Position numbers and translations under genes: made by a program. A DNA stretch of 64,000 nucleotides from Terriglobales bacterium (lineage in GTDB: Bacteria > Acidobacteriota > Terriglobia > Terriglobales > Acidobacteriaceae). The notes below the pieces were generated by a model, which was not told where the DNA came from, ran no database searches, and worked only from the letters and a program-made list of their open reading frames with translations. Positions within the stretch are counted from its first letter, which is position 1; every line of letters starts with the position of its first letter. Of this stretch, positions 73 to 45,068 are shown piece after piece. Location of the stretch: positions 88,971 to 152,970 of the forward strand of contig CAWDJD010000003.1 of NCBI GenBank assembly GCA_963802555.1, read 5' to 3'.

Positions 73-297
73 AATCCAATCTCCTTCGATTCATCTCGAC
101 AGTCGCAGGGCTTTGCTACCGCGCGAATGCATCTGGCGCCACTTTGCGACAAAGAGGAGCGAAAGGCAAGAGAACTGAAAGGGAACTCAGGCTGACCCGC
201 TAAAACGCTGAGGGGAAGGTAGTTACGAAGATTTCTGACCTGGAAGTCTAAGGCTTTTCTGGGGGATTGAAAGAACGAGCTTGCAAGGTCCGTGGTA

Positions 298-10315: not shown

Positions 10316-10447
10316 TCTTTCCCCTCTGAATCTGTACAAAACAGAATTACCTTTGGCCTACGCAACCAAGCAGTCTACCCTCATCATCGGGTCCCGGCCA
10401 GCGGGTATGCTATGTTTAACGCGCCCTAATCAATCTACGAGGCGGCC

Positions 10448-11260
10448 ATGCCCCGATACGAATATCGTCCCATTAATCCGACGCCAGAAGCCCAAAGGAG
10501 CTTTCTGGAATGGATCGAACGTCTGGACCGCGAATTCAGCAATCGCGATCCCCAGCACCGCAATGACGTCGTCCGCGACACCTTGCACGAGCTTTATCTG
10601 GGACACCCCTACGCCGCGCCCGGCCCGACCGCGACCCTGGCGGAACAGACCCTGGTCCACAGCTTCGATCCGAGAAACGCTTCGCTCGAACCGGAATATT
10701 ATGGCGACGTCGATCCCGTGAAATATGCCGAGCGTAAGCCGCTCATCTGGCTCTGGATGATGTATGACCGCTCCCCGGTGGGGCTAAATCACTGGCTGGG
10801 CTTTCGTCTACGCGCCATGCTCGCACGCCACGTTCTCAAGCGCTGCGGCAAGAATGTCAAGATTTTTCACGGTGTGGAAATCTCGTTCGGCTACAACCTG
10901 ACCATTGAAGACAACTGCACCATCCACAAGTATGTACTGCTGGATGACCGCGGTGAACTCATCATCCATGAAGGCAGCTCGATTTCCGACTATGCGAACG
11001 TCTATACCCACGCGCATGATCTGAATGACGGCATGATCGTTTCTAACCACGTCACCGAGATCGGCCCCAAGGCACGCGTTACGTACCACGCTACGGTGAT
11101 GAGCGGAGTGAAAATCGGCGAGCATGGGATGGTGGGCTCGATGGGCGTGGCTTCCAAGGATGTCGCACCTTTCAACGTCGTGGCCGGCATTCCCGCGAAA
11201 CCGATCAAGGTAAAGCCCATCGCCCCCGAGGAACTGCGCAAAGAATTTGGGAAGCACTAG
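10448..11260 (+). CDS. left-handed beta-helix (hexapeptide-repeat) acyltransferase
   Basis: C-terminal hexapeptide repeats (IFHGVEISFGYNLTIEDNCTIHKYVLLDD..IGEHGMVGSMGVASKDVAPFNVVAGIPAK). The N-terminal roughly 120 aa are not recognisable. Confidence 0.7.
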   Translation: MPRYEYRPINPTPEAQRSFLEWIERLDREFSNRDPQHRNDVVRDTLHELYLGHPYAAPGPTATLAEQTLVHSFDPRNASLEPEYYGDVDPVKYAERKPLIWLWMMYDRSPVGLNHWLGFRLRAMLARHVLKRCGKNVKIFHGVEISFGYNLTIEDNCTIHKYVLLDDRGELIIHEGSSISDYANVYTHAHDLNDGMIVSNHVTEIGPKARVTYHATVMSGVKIGEHGMVGSMGVASKDVAPFNVVAGIPAKPIKVKPIAPEELRKEFGKH

Positions 11261-14283: not shown

Positions 14284-15645
14284 ATGCCGTCTGAACGTCT
14301 GCAAAAAATCATTGCCGCTGCCGGCATCGCCTCCCGCCGCAAAGCGGAACAGATCATCACCAGCGGACTCGTCTCCGTGAATGGCCAGGTCGTCACCGAA
14401 CTGGGCAGCAAGGCCGATCCCGACGTCGATCATATCCGCGTCAACGGCAAGCTTCTTCACGGGCCCGAGCGGCATGTTTATCTGCTGATGAACAAGCCCA
14501 AGGGCTACGTCACCACGCTGAGCGATCCCGAGCATCGCCCCACTGTCATGGACCTGCTCCACGGCGTGGGAGCGCGCGTCTATCCCGTGGGCCGCCTCGA
14601 TTACGCCAGCGAAGGCCTTCTCCTCCTTACCAATGACGGCGAATTCGCCAACCTCTTAATGAAGGCTGCTTCCCACGTCCCAAAAACTTACATGGTGAAA
14701 GTGGCGGGCAAGCCCAAGGACGATGGCCTCAGCAAGTTACGCGCAGGTCTATTCATCGGATCGGAAGATGGAAGGCGTGTGAAAACCGCACCCGCCCGAG
14801 TGAATCTGATTCGCGAAGCCAATAATCCCTGGTACGAGATTACGTTGACCGAAGGCAAGAATCGTCAGATTCGCCGCATGTTCGAGGAGATTGGACACCA
14901 CGTCGAGAAGATCAAACGCGTCCGCTACGGAAATCTTGAGTTGGATGTTCATCCCGGAAAATTCCGCAAGCTAACAACCGAAGAGGTCGACCGGCTCAAA
15001 TCGATGACGAAACCGGGAGCCGATCCGCGAAGATTCATGCCAATTTTCGACAAGCCGAAAGTTAGCTACGCTAAAACTAGCGCACCACCAGCCAAGCCGA
15101 AATTCATACCGCGCTCCGACTCACGCCCGGTATTGTCGGCGAAGCCCACCGCATCATTTGCCAGAGCCGGCGCCAGGGGCCCCAAACCCAGCTTCGGTCG
15201 AGGCCCGTCGGGCCCGCGTCCGTCTACGCCCGCGAAGTCCAACGGTTCATTCGCGAAAGGCTCGCAACCGAACCGGCCCAAGTTTTCTGCACGGCCTTCT
15301 GCTGAACACCCATCCAATACGAAACGCCCATCGAAGTTTGCCAAGCCCAACGCATTTGCGAAGCCGAATGCGTTCGCGAAATACGCCAAGAAGCCCGCCA
15401 GACCCAGCTTTGCTCGGCAGGCCGACGCCCAGGAATCCTCGCCGAGGAAGCCTGCCGCCTCATTCGCGCGAGCCGGCGAAAGGACGACCAAGCCCGCTTT
15501 CAATACAAGTTCATCTTCCCGGCGCCCGGCTACTCAACGCCCATCTTCTCAACGACCGTTTACTTCGCGCCCGGCTTCTGGACGCCCATCCTCGCCCGCC
15601 GGACCGCGCCGCAACAGCCAGCGTCGCCCGGATCGACACCGATAG
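14284..15645 (+). CDS. rluB: 23S rRNA pseudouridine synthase (RluB/RsuA family) with a long basic C-terminal tail
   Basis: S4 domain (RLQKIIAAAGIASRRKAEQII), catalytic region (GRLDYASEGLLLLTNDG) and KNRQIRRMFE. From about codon 260 the sequence is a basic, Pro/Ser/Ala-rich low-complexity tail. Confidence 0.88.
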   Translation: MPSERLQKIIAAAGIASRRKAEQIITSGLVSVNGQVVTELGSKADPDVDHIRVNGKLLHGPERHVYLLMNKPKGYVTTLSDPEHRPTVMDLLHGVGARVYPVGRLDYASEGLLLLTNDGEFANLLMKAASHVPKTYMVKVAGKPKDDGLSKLRAGLFIGSEDGRRVKTAPARVNLIREANNPWYEITLTEGKNRQIRRMFEEIGHHVEKIKRVRYGNLELDVHPGKFRKLTTEEVDRLKSMTKPGADPRRFMPIFDKPKVSYAKTSAPPAKPKFIPRSDSRPVLSAKPTASFARAGARGPKPSFGRGPSGPRPSTPAKSNGSFAKGSQPNRPKFSARPSAEHPSNTKRPSKFAKPNAFAKPNAFAKYAKKPARPSFARQADAQESSPRKPAASFARAGERTTKPAFNTSSSSRRPATQRPSSQRPFTSRPASGRPSSPAGPRRNSQRRPDRHR

Positions 15646-16656: not shown

Positions 16657-16722
16657 GAAAAATAGTTTACAGGCATCCGAATGCAAGCGTTAGCGCGCTC
16701 GTCCAGACGGAACTCAAGCCAA

Positions 16723-16756
16723 GATTCGTATCAGGGCATCGCCTTCAGGCGTACCG
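16723..16756 (+). repeat. REP-like hairpin element (ttcgtatcagggca.. family), left flank of the orphan pair
   Basis: Shares the 14-nt core ttcgtatcagggca, plus a similar downstream hairpin, with the reverse complement of 18572-18605. Confidence 0.6.
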
Positions 16757-16827
16757 TACATGGCTTGGATCCCGCAGGATCGAGGAGATTAGGTCGCCCG
16801 GTCTGGTTAGAGCTTCTGGCATTTCGA

Positions 16828-18051
16828 CTACTCCTCCACTGCCTTAGCGCGGGCCTTGGCTGCCTCGTCTAAGATGCGCCATGCCTTTTTGATTCGGTCG
16901 CGATGCACTGGTTCCAAATCTTCGATGAGGGTAGGCTTGTTAGAATTGGTCTGCTCGGTAACCGGGGGACGTACTATGCGATCAGGTCTTGTGGGTTGAA
17001 AATCACCCATCGGCAGGATGATGTATTTTTGCCAGACAGTGTGGATCGGCAACGATTGAAACTCATCCGGAAACCAAGGATACCGGCGCGCGGTTTTCTG
17101 CTCCTGTTCTCCATCCTGACGAATCCTTCCTACGCGCTGTTGCAGCTCGTGCTTCAAATCAGGCCCCCAGATGAACGTGTTCTCGCCTGCTGTCGCGGGC
17201 CACATCTCACGGTGAAACTTATCCGACGAGACGAAACACATACAGAACGGAGCATAAAACAGATACTGCAAGTCTAAATAGTGGCTGGGTCGCGGGCCGA
17301 TGAATCCTCTGCCAAGGCCGCCCATGAACGTTAGATAAAGTCGCAGAATCGACGCCGCATAAGGACAAAGGTCCTTCAACCTTGGCATCAAGCCGGAGCG
17401 AAAAAGCGCAGTCGCAATTCTCGCCGCAGGAATTGACACGTCAAGAAAGGCCATCAGCATCGTAAGCAGTGTTCCCTGAACATTTCGGTCGAAGTCGTCC
17501 ATCATTGCGTTGACAAGGGAGATCAAGTCGGAAAGGTTGCTGGCGTTTCCAAAATGTTCCTGTGCGAATTCTTTCCAGTCTTTGCTTAATAGATCTAGAT
17601 TGATGTTCGCTACTCCCTGTCGCCACATCGCCGCACTCGTCGCATCGTCGACCGTGAAGTTTCCATGTTCCCAACGCCGCCACATCTCCTGTTCGATCGT
17701 GGAGTCATAGATCACTCCTTGACCGTCGTCGGTGACGAAGACGTTGGCAGCGTGCGGGTCAACAGGCACTTGTCCAGACATTGGCACGTCGTACATACAA
17801 CAGAGACTTGCGATGCACAGCTTCCGAAAGTTCGCCGGTTGAAGACCATGAGCCTTTCCCATCTTCGACGCCAGTGCGCGAACAACCTGTTCCGGCAAAC
17901 TTCGCGCCATTGGCTTCTTCAAATCAGCAATGATCTCGGGGATCAGAAGTGGAGCACCTACGAACTTAAAGTACATGCTCAGTTCCGACACTTCGGACGG
18001 ATTGAGCATCTGCAGGAATGACTTGTCGAACATCAGCAACGGCCCGTTCAA
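16828..18051 (-). CDS. hypothetical protein, possible PIN-like nuclease with a large internal insertion
   Basis: 407-codon ORF. TTG start at 18051 is preceded by GGAG 5 nt upstream. PIN-like motif order: LLMFD(9)KSFLQML, APLLIPE(39)IIADL, then YLD(260)LQYLFYA..CFVSSD(277)KF. Matches no family I recognise. Confidence 0.6.
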   Translation of the reverse strand: MNGPLLMFDKSFLQMLNPSEVSELSMYFKFVGAPLLIPEIIADLKKPMARSLPEQVVRALASKMGKAHGLQPANFRKLCIASLCCMYDVPMSGQVPVDPHAANVFVTDDGQGVIYDSTIEQEMWRRWEHGNFTVDDATSAAMWRQGVANINLDLLSKDWKEFAQEHFGNASNLSDLISLVNAMMDDFDRNVQGTLLTMLMAFLDVSIPAARIATALFRSGLMPRLKDLCPYAASILRLYLTFMGGLGRGFIGPRPSHYLDLQYLFYAPFCMCFVSSDKFHREMWPATAGENTFIWGPDLKHELQQRVGRIRQDGEQEQKTARRYPWFPDEFQSLPIHTVWQKYIILPMGDFQPTRPDRIVRPPVTEQTNSNKPTLIEDLEPVHRDRIKKAWRILDEAAKARAKAVEE

Positions 18052-18100
18052 ATTTGCTCCACGTCGAACTTCCGCCGTACAATTATTGGATAAGGGTACT

Positions 18101-18478
18101 ATGGCTGATCAAGAAAAATGCGATGGATGTGGCACCGTGCTCGATCCGGCGATTCAGCCAGACCGTGCCCCGTGTCCGTTCTGTGGTTTGATGACGCGTG
18201 TGATTGAGGTTTCGATTAAAGACGGTATCGAACTCCACGACTCTGTTGGCTTCAAGCACAAACGAGATGGCCACAAGTTGCCCCTAGCGGAAGGAATGGC
18301 AGGTGACGATCTTTTTCGGACTGAACAGAGATGGGTTGGCAAGGAAAGGCTAATCGACAGAGAAAAGAATCGCTACCGGGAAAAGGTGACCGACCCGAGC
18401 ACTGGTAAAGTCATTCACCAGTGCGATGAACCGCTAGACCAACATCGCGGCCACGGCAGCGATAAAGCCAAAGCGTAA
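18101..18478 (+). CDS. hypothetical zinc-ribbon protein
   Basis: ATG at 18101 is preceded by AAGGG. N-terminal CDGC..x17..CPFC four-Cys ribbon, followed by a charged C-terminal region (RLIDREKNRYREKVTDPSTGKVIHQCDEPLDQHRGHGSDK). Confidence 0.55.
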   Translation: MADQEKCDGCGTVLDPAIQPDRAPCPFCGLMTRVIEVSIKDGIELHDSVGFKHKRDGHKLPLAEGMAGDDLFRTEQRWVGKERLIDREKNRYREKVTDPSTGKVIHQCDEPLDQHRGHGSDKAKA

Positions 18479-18571
18479 CAGTCCAACTCGCCCAACCCGA
18501 GCACCTTACTTTGCCCGAAGGAAAGCTGCCCGACTCAGCGGCTAAAGCCGGTGGTTCGACCTGACTCTTTT

Positions 18572-18605
18572 CGGCACGGCTGTGAAGCCGTGCCCTGATA
18601 CGAAG
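18572..18605 (-). repeat. REP-like hairpin element (same family as 16723-16756, opposite orientation)
   Basis: cggcacggctgtgaagccgtgccctgatacgaag. Hairpin cggcacggc/gccgtgcc. The reverse complement begins cttcgtatcagggca. Confidence 0.6.
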
Positions 18606-18800
18606 CTGGTAAACCCCACCATTGCCCCCGCCCCGCCCCGCAGGTTATGATTCTCGGTACACCTCTACTGCACCTTATCCCTGTAATTCAGTACATGCGC
18701 AGTTCGCTGGGGCAACGAGTGTGTGCGAACCCTGGAATGCGGTTGGGCTTTTCTCGCACGTCGTTGGAGCGGCCCCACGCTTCCGTTCACGGAGCTGGCA

Positions 18801-20142
18801 TTGAGCAAGGGTAAAACCGCGGTCATCGTAGGCGCCCAGTGGGGCGATGAGGGCAAGGGCAAGATCGTCGACGTCCTCTCCGAAGAGTTCTCCATCGTGG
18901 CGCGCTATGCCGGAGGACACAATGCCGGCCACACCGTCATCATCAATGGCAAGAAATTCATCTTGCAGCTGGTACCCTGCGGCGTGCTGCGCGCCGGATG
19001 CCGCAGCGTGATTGGCAATGGCGTCGTGCTCGATCCCATGGCCTTTCTCAAGGAAGTCGCGGCCCTGCGCGAAACCGGCGTAAAGGTCGATGGCAGCCTG
19101 TTCGTCAGCAATCGCGCGCACGTGATCCTGCCCTACCATCGCATGATCGAACTCGCTTCCGAAAATGCTCCCGGACGCGTAAAGATCGGCACCACTTCCC
19201 GCGGCATCGGCCCCGCCTACGAAGACAAAATGGGACGCCGCGGCCTGCGCGTGGCCGACCTGCTTGATCTCCAGCTGTTAAAAACGCACATCGAAAACGC
19301 CTGCCGCGAGAAAAATATGATCGCGCATGCGCTGTTCAACTCCGAGCCGCTCGATCCCGACAAGATGTACCACGAGTACGCCGAAGCCTCCGCCAAGATC
19401 GCGCCGTTTGTGACCGACACGGCGGTCATGCTCAACAACGCGATCAATCAGGGCGAATCGGTAATGTTCGAAGGCGCGCAGGGCACCATGCTCGACATCG
19501 ATCACGGCACTTATCCCTTCGTCACGTCGTCGAGCGCGACTTCGGGCGGCGCGGTCATCGGCACCGGCGTCGCACCCACCGCGATTGGCACCGTCATCGG
19601 CCTGACCAAAGCCTATTGCACCCGCGTAGGCGGCGGCCCGTTCCCCTCGGAACTTTTGGATTCGACCGGCGACCAACTTCGCGCCCGCGGCAATGAATAC
19701 GGCGCAGTCACGGGACGTCCCGCGCCGCTGCGGATGGCTGGACTTGCCGCTTTTGCGCTACGCTGGCATGATTAACGGCATCTCCTGGCTGGTGGTCACG
19801 AAGCTCGACGTGCTCGACGAAATGGCTGAAATCCCCGTCTGTGTCGGCTACAAAATCGGTGGCAAGACCACGACGGAAATCCCCGCGCACGCCAGCGGAT
19901 ACGATCCCATCGAGTGCGTTTATCAAACTCTGGCGGGATGGCGCACGCCGACGGTCGGTATCAGGCAATTCGAAAAATTGCCCAAAGCCGCCCGCGAATA
20001 CTTGGCTTTCATCGAGAAAGAAACCGGCGCCCGTGTTGGCATGGTTTCCACCGGGCCAGACCGTGAGCAAACCATATTTGTCGACGACTTTGCCGCCGAG
20101 ATGAAGTCGTTGACCGGAAAGAAAATCGAGACGCACGCATAA
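18801..20142 (+). pseudogene. purA: adenylosuccinate synthetase, reading frame broken by one extra base near 19719-19724
   Basis: Frame 0 reads GKTAVIVGAQWGDEGKGKIVD..GGHNAGHT.. up to GNEYGAVTGRP. The family sequence RRCGWLDLPLLRYA..VVTKLDVLD continues in the +1 frame (the 19693 ORF). Frame 0 stops at 19775. Confidence 0.9.
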
Positions 20143-43591: not shown

Positions 43592-43984
43592 TCAGAACAG
43601 CTCGATCTCGACCGTGCGGCCGGAGGCGGAAGCGAGACGGGCGTCGCGGGTTACCAACGTCGCGCCGAGATTTTCGGCGAGCACTACGTAGGCTGCGTCA
43701 TAGGCGGACAGGTTGTGGCGAAGCTGCCAAATGCGGGACAGGAACACGAAATGGGGATAACGCGTTACCCGGAGATCCATCAGGTCCTGGATCGCTTCCT
43801 CCGCGCGGGGAGCTGAGATCACAGTTTCCCGGACCAGCCGCCGCAATACCTGCGCGACCTCGAGGTCCAGCAGGTGCGGGGCATGCAGAGATTCTTTGCG
43901 CGCGTAAATCCGTTCTTCGATCTGCCGTCCCGCGGAGGTCTGAAGCAGCCAGTCCACTGCGGCGGACGCGTCCACGACGATCAC
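43592..43984 (-). CDS. vapC: PIN-domain toxin (VapC family)
   Basis: PIN motif order: MIVVDASAAV.., LLDLEVAQVL, YDAAYVVLAE..ATLVTRDARL. Overlaps the upstream antitoxin gene by 4 nt. Confidence 0.88.
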   Translation of the reverse strand: MIVVDASAAVDWLLQTSAGRQIEERIYARKESLHAPHLLDLEVAQVLRRLVRETVISAPRAEEAIQDLMDLRVTRYPHFVFLSRIWQLRHNLSAYDAAYVVLAENLGATLVTRDARLASASGRTVEIELF

Positions 43985-44211
43985 CGGGCCTCGCGTTCTT
44001 CCTGCACCAGACGAGCGGTGTCGAGTTGGACTCTTACCGGCTTGCGGGTATGCAGACGATCGCGCAGCTCCGCCAGGGTGGGCCGCTCGGCAATCTCTTT
44101 GATTTCCGCCAGCAAGTAATCCGATAGCGACATCCCGGCCAGGGCGGCGCGGGCCTTCAGGCCACGATGTAGGGCATCCGGCACGTTGCGAAGCTGGATC
44201 ATCTTTGACAT
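43981..44211 (-). CDS. ribbon-helix-helix antitoxin (FitA/VapB-like)
   Basis: 76 aa. IQLRNVPDALHRGLKARAALAGMSLSDYLLAEI is a typical RHH antitoxin N-terminus. Translationally coupled to vapC. Confidence 0.8.
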   Translation of the reverse strand: MSKMIQLRNVPDALHRGLKARAALAGMSLSDYLLAEIKEIAERPTLAELRDRLHTRKPVRVQLDTARLVQEEREAR

Positions 44212-44244
44212 GTTAATAGCATACTTTCATGTGCGTAACATGTC
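44207..44244. promoter_or_regulatory. 9-bp inverted repeat GACATGTTA-N20-TAACATGTC at the antitoxin start (candidate operator)
   Basis: Perfect arms at 44207-44215 and 44236-44244. A third CATG-containing half-site lies in the spacer. The left arm covers the antitoxin ATG. Confidence 0.45.
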
Positions 44245-44321
44245 AAGATCGCGGGTGATCGGAAGTCGATTCTTTATGTGAGAAGTATGGCTAAGCTGTT
44301 ATCATCTGGATTGACCCCTGC

Positions 44322-44339
44322 GAACTAACTAATTAGTTC
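44322..44339. promoter_or_regulatory. inverted repeat GAACTA-N6-TAGTTC upstream of the Phd-family antitoxin (candidate operator)
   Basis: Perfect 6-bp arms ending 7 nt before the ATG at 44346. TTGACC lies at 44311-44316. Confidence 0.4.
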
Positions 44340-44345
44340 AGAATT

Positions 44346-44639
44346 ATGGCGACATCTCCCAACTCGATTCCGAAGGTCGTCTCGGCACTGGCGGCCCGAA
44401 CCCAATTCGGTCAGCTCATGCGCCGGGCGCGAAACAACCAGACACGTTTCGTGGTGGATAAGCGGGGAGAGCCGCAAGTTGTCATTATGAGCGTGAAAGA
44501 CTTTCTTAAGACCATTGCTCCGGAAAAGAAAGTTGTCTCCGCCATTCGTGCCGCAGCAGCGAAGCAGGGAAAGAACAAACTATCCATGCGCGAGATCGAC
44601 AACGAAATTCGTGCCTACCGCCGCGAGCGCGCTCTCTAG
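44346..44639 (+). CDS. Phd/YefM-family antitoxin
   Basis: ARTQFGQLMRRARNNQTRFVVDKRGEPQVVIMSVKDF is a typical Phd/YefM fold signature. Immediately upstream of a PIN gene. Confidence 0.8.
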   Translation: MATSPNSIPKVVSALAARTQFGQLMRRARNNQTRFVVDKRGEPQVVIMSVKDFLKTIAPEKKVVSAIRAAAAKQGKNKLSMREIDNEIRAYRRERAL

Positions 44640-44645
44640 GATTCC

Positions 44646-45068
44646 ATGCGAAAAATCAGGATTGTGCTGGATACGAACGTAATCGTATCCGCTCACCTCA
44701 ATTCTGAAGGCCACGAACGGCATGTGCTGGATCTGGTGCTCGCCGGAAAATTGCAGCTCTTTGTGTCGGAGACGATCCTGGCCGAATATGACAGGGTCCT
44801 GCGGCGGCCGAAATTTGGGATCGATGCAAGGTCGGTCACTCGATCCATGCGTATGTTGAAAACTGTCTCTCGCCTGGTTCGAATTCAGCGCAAACTGGTA
44901 GTTGCCTCTGATCCCGACGACAATCGTTTTGTCGAATGCGCCGAAGTATCGAAGGCCGATTACTTAGTGACCGGCAACAAGCGCCACTTCCCCGCGCGCT
45001 GGCGGCGCACACAAGTTGTGAATTCGAGGGAATTGCTGGAATGGGTGATTCCGGAGTTACAACGATAA
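44646..45068 (+). CDS. PIN-domain toxin (second TA module)
   Basis: Motifs: IRIVLDTNVIVSA, ILAEYDRVLRRPKF, DPDDNRFVECA..ADYLVTGNKRHF. Confidence 0.85.
   Translation: MRKIRIVLDTNVIVSAHLNSEGHERHVLDLVLAGKLQLFVSETILAEYDRVLRRPKFGIDARSVTRSMRMLKTVSRLVRIQRKLVVASDPDDNRFVECAEVSKADYLVTGNKRHFPARWRRTQVVNSRELLEWVIPELQR

Follow-up and report, generated by a model that had tools for sequence, protein, structure and literature searches.

We analysed a 64-kb stretch of DNA from a Terriglobales bacterium (Acidobacteriota; GenBank assembly GCA_963802555.1, contig CAWDJD010000003.1, positions 88,971 to 152,970), the whole of which is called the window below, and examined two divergent open reading frames (ORFs) that lie in it between mutM and purA. 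ORF A (16828..18051, reverse strand) encodes a protein of 407 amino acids with acidic residues arranged as in PIN nucleases, and ORF B (18101..18478, forward strand) encodes a protein of 125 amino acids with an N-terminal zinc ribbon and an all-beta C-terminal part. The two ORFs are placed head-to-head and are separated by a 49-bp spacer (18052..18100), as described in an earlier note on this DNA that was made from the sequence alone. The spacer includes the ribosome-binding sites of both genes, GGAG for ORF A and AAGGG for ORF B, again in agreement with that note.

The 407-residue form of ORF A starts with TTG; public gene callers chose an ATG at 18033, which yields 401 amino acids. Judged from the sequence, TTG is the better start, because the GGAG Shine-Dalgarno site lies 5 nt 5' of it and the additional residues encode a GP(L)L motif that is conserved in at least 90% of the ORF A homologues. 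Residues are numbered from the TTG start (407-numbering) unless numbering from the ATG start (401-numbering) is stated.

Acquired DNA between mutM and purA

In order to find relatives that share this locus, metagenome contigs were scanned for homologues of the window's MutM. In L094, L096, L101 and L104 (MutM 48-69% identical) purA lies next to mutM in divergent orientation, at a distance of ~110-520 bp, and in the closest relative, L092 (MutM 78%), the contig ends at the purA start, ~235 bp from mutM. The corresponding gap in the window is 2,144 bp. No match to ORF A or ORF B was found between mutM and purA in any of these five relatives, and since all five have the two genes adjacent without either ORF, the segment is an insertion. 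Alignment of the L092 intergenic region with the flanks in the window places the end of homology shortly after the mutM start (~16672) and its return just past a repeat on the right side of the pair (~18627). The extra DNA, approximately 16673..18626, therefore includes both genes and both copies of the repeat that brackets them.

The GC content of 16828-18478 is 52.4%, compared to 57.3% for the whole window, which is in the 2nd percentile of equal-sized windows and ~2.5 standard deviations low. It is nearly equal in ORF A and ORF B (52.5% and 52.6%). Absence from the same locus in relatives and deviant GC are the marks of a genomic islet, and they confirm that the region between mutM and purA holds ~1.95 kb of acquired DNA. 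Both the low GC and the insertion had been proposed in the earlier note, and both hold. Its further claim, that each promoter must be located within the opposite gene, does not necessarily hold for ORF B, since a candidate promoter read from the sequence, TTGCTC-N18-TACAAT, fits within the spacer. A consensus scan of 18052-18100 found no sigma-70-type promoter, and an Rfam search of the region found no RNA family.

A widespread protein family with invariant acidic residues

ORF A had no match in Pfam, NCBIfam, PADLOC or PHROGs, and the same is true of ORF B. The earlier statement that neither protein belongs to a nameable family is correct to this extent. The orphan status given to the pair is not, as both ORFs encode conserved proteins with homologues. 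A word-indexed search returned at least 120 ORF A homologues, and none among those listed had a precomputed Pfam domain. A HMMER profile search of 1.84 billion representatives identified 2,027 clusters (defined at 50% identity) at E<=1e-3, including 819 at E<=1e-30, nearly all of them 380-430 amino acids long and aligned end to end. One hundred ninety-nine loci were found in a scan of one genome per species. They belong to Acidobacteriota, Proteobacteria, Planctomycetota, Bacteroidota, Chloroflexota, Patescibacteria, Methanobacterium and others, and the family is found in bacteria, including the candidate phyla radiation (CPR), and in archaea. A literature search found no description of the family. 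Phage and plasmid collections contained one IMG/VR contig with an ORF A homologue and one weak plasmid match, and GenBank phages had none. This near-absence led us to reject the possibility that ORF A is a phage or plasmid gene.

Some members of the family carry additional C-terminal sequences. About 10 of 260 end in a SEC-C zinc motif, DPCPCGSGKKFKDCH (P0188, P0189, P0190, P0223, P0237, P0247, P0250, P0256 and P0262, with P0163 listed too), one is fused to DUF5677, and P0176 (529 amino acids) and P0233 (863 amino acids) have long unannotated extensions.

Conservation was determined in 161 non-identical members. Of these, 120 came from the representative search, and most of the 120 share just 21-35% identity with the query. 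Five residues, D9, K10, E39, D260 and D277 (D3, K4, E33, D254 and D271 in 401-numbering), are 100% conserved among the sequences that include these positions. S11 (98%), Y263, Y266, S275 (99%) and H280 are conserved at 96-99%. The motifs that the earlier note had read in ORF A, D9, E39, D260 and S275-x-D277, are all present, and the conservation of the four acidic residues among homologues, which had been set beforehand as a test, is complete in this sample. The N-terminal half of the proposed active site is encoded at 17935..18027 on the reverse strand (D9-K10-S11 at 18019-18027 and E39 at 17935-17937), and the C-terminal half at 17212..17274 on the same strand (D260-x2-Y263-x2-Y266...S275-x-D277...H280, modelled as helix-strand-helix). 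Between them, at 17320..17916 on the reverse strand, lies a mostly helical insert of ~200 residues (roughly 46-244), which was modelled as helices and one hairpin and includes the invariant residues W127, F132, W143 and R144.

An AlphaFold2 (AF2) model of ORF A, built from 42 sequences, had a pLDDT of 88.5 and a pTM of 0.85, and the N-terminal and 241-300 blocks reached 86-98. In 401-numbering the model places a strand at residue 2, helices at 30-38 and 249-258, a strand at 266-269, a helix at 272-280, a strand at 286-289 and a helix at 290-307. In this predicted structure D9 directly follows the short N-terminal strand and E39 belongs to the first turn of the long helix that comes next. The mostly helical insert separates this glutamate helix from the third motif, where D260 is located in a helix; S275-x-D277 closes the following strand, after which come a helix, a strand and a helix. 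The first aspartate and the glutamate are 30 residues apart. D260 and D277 are 17 residues apart, exactly as in the window's own VapC, YDAAYVVLAENLGATLVTRD. As judged by conservation in the 161 members and by the AF2 model, ORF A thus has the D...E...D...D order and the strand and helix placement of the PIN domain-like superfamily.

Among known PIN proteins, ORF A is most readily compared to VapC-type toxins (PF01850), such as the one encoded at 43592-43984 in the window. In both, an aspartate follows strand 1, a glutamate is on the helix after strand 2, D-x2-Y/h-x3-A is on a helix, and hh(S/T)xD follows, with the last two aspartates 17 residues apart; by analogy, metal-dependent nuclease chemistry would be expected of ORF A. 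The differences are considerable, as ORF A has 407 rather than ~130 amino acids, owing to the insert and a 125-residue tail, has no adjacent antitoxin or conserved partner, and is not detected by any PIN model.

The catalytic glutamate of VapC-like enzymes resides on a helical insert after strand 2, and the helical arch of FEN and the tower of XRN nucleases are located at this same site (S2-H3) (PMC5499597). A large insertion at the position seen in ORF A therefore has a precedent. ORF A would share with the FEN/XRN-type PIN-like 5' nucleases a large helical element that adjoins the active site and is inserted between strand 2 and helix 3, and in these enzymes the arch or tower selects and threads the substrate (PMC5499597). 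FEN-like enzymes, unlike ORF A, have more acidic residues and a C-terminal H3TH/H2TH domain, and a glutamate on the helix after strand 2 is a VapC-like rather than a FEN-like feature (PMC5499597). No sequence or structure match of ORF A to FEN or XRN nucleases was found by Foldseek or by the PDB profile search.

Genomic company of ORF A and ORF B and the flanking repeats

BLAST clustering of the neighbours at 80 ORF A loci revealed no recurrent partner, and neither did a survey of upstream ORFs. In a bulk Pfam/PADLOC scan the 150 nearest neighbours of ORF A fell into 123 Pfam families, none of which occurred in more than three neighbours; they included a sprinkling of defence and mobile-element matches together with housekeeping genes. 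A conserved partner for ORF A, which had been sought by all these approaches, was rejected, and ORF A is a solo gene. One close homologue has a different, 260-aa divergent gene and lies in a region with resolvase, IS21 and Mu-transposase genes. Others are found near TIR_2 and a Y1 transposase, near a RES toxin, near MazE between guaA and proline dehydrogenase, near HEPN ApeA, HEPN Swt1 and DUF5343, or near an HSDR_N-like gene. Distant members follow Schlafen/AlbA_2, XcyI, integrase, AbiTii or HsdS genes. In addition, a 79%-identical homologue at L008 (6001-7924, on the same contig as L004) is frameshifted into 298 and 123 amino acids. It adjoins a Y1_Tnp (RAYT-like) gene that has inverted repeats of 38 nt (97%) on either side, and is bracketed by short copies of that genome's own repeat.

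These variable contexts, often with defence, toxin-antitoxin or mobile-element genes, bear out the accessory character that the earlier note had ascribed to the locus, and the company of ORF A suggests that it functions in conflict or defence. Nucleases that act as single-gene defence or abortive-infection systems, such as HEPN ApeA and AbiTii, are likewise solo genes with a patchy spread across phyla, often adjoining defence, toxin-antitoxin and mobile-element genes. The likeness is one of gene context, and ORF A differs from them in having no homology to PADLOC entries and many housekeeping neighbours.

ORF B has 19 homologues. Its zinc ribbon is C7xxC10-x14-C25xxC28 (18119-18184); the N-terminal ribbon reported earlier is present, with a spacing of 14 residues rather than the 17 given at that time. 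The C-terminal part is conserved, basic and all-beta (GFKHKR...KERLIDR...YRE...DEPL..H.GHGS), and the AF2 model of the protein has a pLDDT of 84.7. No PDB match was found by sequence or by fold (Foldseek, nothing below E 0.2). The ribbon weakly resembles those of RpoP or S27ae. ORF B shares the CxxC...CPxCG ribbon with generic zinc-ribbon proteins (RpoP/RPABC4, S27ae, Lar-like), which are its weak best matches, and differs from them in its conserved C-terminal domain, which matches nothing known. A fusion of ORF B to the tails of ORF A proteins, or a relationship between them, was also considered and rejected, as the two show no similarity and the SEC-C motif of some ORF A members is unrelated to ORF B.

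The elements that hold ORF B homologues at 64-66% identity have integrase genes, combined with either capsid or primase-helicase genes. More distant relatives are found on three IMG/VR contigs (one adjoining a baseplate gene), in a faecal phage and on a Thermomicrobium megaplasmid. From this distribution of its homologues, ORF B is read as a cargo gene of mobile elements and prophages. On the megaplasmid (Thermomicrobium roseum NC_011961.1; L180, 4715-5429) the 36%-identical ORF B homologue lies ~180 bp downstream of a small co-directional gene of the AbrB/MazE/SpoVT family.

The two genes do not travel together. When searched with tblastn, ORF B was absent from 92 of 92 ORF A loci, including the closest at 66-79% identity, and ORF A was absent from the loci of ORF B homologues, including those at 64-66% identity. 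The same ORF A-ORF B pair was seen on an independent short assembly.

The pair is bracketed by two oppositely oriented copies of one repeat, TTCGTATCAGGGCA, as the earlier note had recognised. The left copy (16722..16760, forward strand) lies between the stop of ORF A and the start of mutM, downstream of the former and upstream of the latter, and in the ORF A mRNA sense folds into a hairpin of -19.4 kcal/mol (z -3.35). The right copy (18574..18607, reverse strand), inverted relative to the left, lies downstream of the ORF B stop and upstream of purA, and in the ORF B mRNA sense folds with -20.9 kcal/mol (z -3.9). The copies are similar over ~40 nt, and their inverted-repeat arms, 16722-16738 and 18591-18607, are 17 nt long and 94% complementary. 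Each is located 70-100 nt past the stop codon of one gene and, in the mRNA sense of that gene, folds into a stable hairpin, after which comes CUGAUACGAA. For the 14-mer core, 0.01 occurrences would be expected in the window and 3 are present. The third, degenerate copy (10445-10462, one mismatch) forms no stable hairpin, unlike the flanking two.

Short GC-rich hairpins with a conserved tail, inverted and intergenic at gene 3' ends, are features shared with repetitive extragenic palindromic (REP) and REPIN elements. The flanking repeats differ from these in that 1.85 kb of DNA with two genes separates the copies and that the window includes no RAYT gene. Stable folding was predicted for both flanking copies and the core exceeds its expected frequency, but only three copies are present in 64 kb and the third does not fold. 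The core was absent from 180 of 180 related loci, among them all loci of ORF A and of ORF B, and the possibility that the repeat travels with either gene was rejected on this basis. At this intergenic position the relatives have other palindromic repeats of their own, which is what is expected of host REPs. The flanking repeats are best read as REP-like hairpins of the host and not as ends of an element, and they probably act as transcript-end or insulator elements.

L092 has a palindrome of its own (~150-230, reverse strand), a GTCGTCAGTC-type repeat, at the intergenic spot of the window's islet. This exact coincidence suggests that the mutM-purA intergenic site is a hot spot for repeats or insertions.

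The window also encodes two canonical PIN toxin-antitoxin modules, which lie back to back at 43592-45068 and border its lowest-GC stretch (~44.0-46.8 kb). One consists of a FitA-like ribbon-helix-helix antitoxin (43981-44211, reverse strand) with VapC PF01850 (43592-43984, reverse strand), and the other of a Phd/YefM antitoxin (44346-44639, forward strand) with a PIN_3 toxin (44646-45068, forward strand). Both toxins were recognised at once by Pfam; ORF A lacks the usual co-directional small antitoxin.

Two of the genes near the islet have peculiarities of their own. purA is split into overlapping ORFs, 18723-19775 and 19693-20142 (overlap 19693-19775), with a CCC run at ~19718-19720. Dropping one C from this run restores the canonical GRPRRCGWLD, and the split probably reflects an error of assembly or in a homopolymer, and not a pseudogene. 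Downstream of mutM, a pseudouridine synthase (RluB-like, 14284-15645) has a low-complexity Pro/Ser/Ala/Lys-rich C-terminal tail of ~200 residues with KPNAFAK repeats.

ORF A as a putative stand-alone PIN-like nuclease

We favour, with a probability of about 0.6, a reading in which an acquired islet of ~1.95 kb carries two unrelated accessory genes: ORF A would be a stand-alone and most likely VapC-type PIN-like metal-dependent nuclease, ORF B the cargo of mobile elements, and the repeats REP-like sequences of the host. With invariant acidic residues at PIN-like positions on predicted strands and helices, ORF A is probably a Mg2+/Mn2+-dependent nuclease with a VapC-type PIN-like active site. 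A PIN fold is plausible, and membership in the superfamily is unproven because no profile or structure search linked the ORF A family to PIN proteins. The PIN nuclease proposed in the earlier note is thus supported by residue conservation and predicted placement, and finds no significant link in Pfam, PDB profile, hhalign or Foldseek searches.

Several observations weigh against this reading. DSSP assigns three short core strands to the ORF A model (residue 2, 266-269 and 286-289), compared to five in the canonical PIN sheet, and calls the expected PIN strands 2 and 3 coil. Pfam found no PIN family in full-length ORF A, in 120 members of the family or in 31 insert-deleted "mini-PIN" constructs, in which residues 1-46 were joined to 240-308 of 31 members. 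Profile searches against PDB sequences, including those with the insert-deleted constructs, retrieved nothing relevant and no PIN. Foldseek searches of PDB and BFVD with the full model returned no match below E 0.2 (the best had E 0.2-0.35), a silence that is weak evidence because Foldseek cannot bridge a 200-residue insert. Alignments by hhalign of mini, N-terminal, C-terminal and full ORF A profiles with a VapC profile were not significant, at 1-11% probability; the best (11%, P 0.003) covered the N-terminal part only. The VapC profile comprised homologues of the window VapC, two PDB PINs and one locus PIN. It is narrow because the homologue search gave only close relatives (at least 78% identity), and a search of the locus ORFs for further members found only two PINs. 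Significant sequence or profile similarity of ORF A to a recognised PIN-like family was accordingly not observed. As for defence, the case is a flavour of the neighbourhood without a background statistic and with many housekeeping neighbours, and neither ORF A nor ORF B had a match in PADLOC-DB 2.0 at E<=1. The ORF A family is also not obviously mobile by itself, since it is almost absent from phages and plasmids.

It follows from the failed searches that ORF A might not be a PIN-like nuclease at all, and might instead perform other metal-dependent chemistry, as a phosphatase, nucleotidyltransferase or other hydrolase, or have a new fold with a chance resemblance to the PIN motif order. The composition of the model, ~75% helical with no more than the three short core strands, is in line with this, and so are the invariant residues atypical of VapC, namely K10, Y263, Y266 and H280. 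We nevertheless regard this explanation as rather improbable, if the most serious of the competing ones. The motif order, the spacing (30 residues from D to E, 17 from D to D, S/T-x-D at the end of a strand) and the secondary-structure positions closely match a VapC-type PIN. The non-significant hhalign alignments pair D with D and E with E of VapC, and the silence of Foldseek counts for little given the length of the insert.

The earlier note had leaned towards a toxin/antitoxin or defence module. In a two-gene module of this type ORF B, as antitoxin, regulator or second defence component, would control ORF A through the shared 49-bp region. The head-to-head arrangement, the matching GC of the two genes, their presence in one inserted segment, the recovery of the pair on an independent short assembly and the potential of a zinc-ribbon protein to bind DNA or RNA would all agree with such a module. 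Its distribution largely refutes it, as the genes never co-occur elsewhere (0 of 92 ORF A loci and 0 ORF B loci) and ORF A homologues have different or no close neighbours. The canonical PIN modules of the window are also built differently, from an overlapping, co-directional small antitoxin and a toxin of 130-140 amino acids. A conserved toxin/antitoxin or other two-gene pair is not supported, the pairing typical of type II toxin-antitoxin systems was not observed, and we judge a two-gene module to be unlikely. As this case shows, two genes can be closely spaced and divergent within an islet without working as a pair. Less likely still, and in our view improbable, is that the inverted repeats are the ends of a REPIN-like or transposon-like mobile cassette that was moved with its two cargo genes by a RAYT/Y1 transposase. 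The extra DNA relative to L092 does start and end near the two repeat copies, two of the three copies in 64 kb flank the islet, and the 79%-identical ORF A homologue adjoins a Y1_Tnp gene with inverted repeats of 38 nt and has short repeats of its own genome on both sides. Known REPINs, however, have spacers of tens of bases and not 1.85 kb. The repeat is absent from all 180 related loci, the window has no Y1 transposase gene, relatives carry different palindromes at the same spot, and no target-site duplication was seen. The repeats behave like host REPs and not like part of a mobile module.

If ORF A is the PIN-like nuclease that we favour, D9 after strand 1, E39 on the next helix, D260 on a later helix and D277 at a strand end would form a metal-dependent active site. 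The helical insert after the glutamate helix would probably gate the site or select the substrate, since its position is that of the arch in FEN and of the tower in XRN nucleases. As no antitoxin travels with ORF A, its activity would have to be limited by substrate specificity or by self-inhibition, and ORF A and ORF B would be chance neighbours in the islet.

The ORF A family probably represents a new architectural variant of PIN-like nucleases. More tentatively, and as a possibility that we hold at clearly less than even odds, it may be a previously undescribed, large family (~2,000 clusters, in bacteria, archaea and CPR) of PIN-like nucleases that stand alone and have an arch-like insert in a VapC-type site, acting as antitoxin-free effectors of immunity or conflict in which the insert senses or gates the substrate. 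A PIN-like ORF A would add to the superfamily a widespread architecture that is covered by no annotation library, one that combines VapC-type catalytic residues with a giant FEN-like insert and does without an antitoxin. The company of TIR, HEPN, Abi, restriction-modification and toxin-antitoxin genes makes the family a candidate single-gene defence or conflict effector, and thousands of genes now called "hypothetical protein" would gain a testable function.

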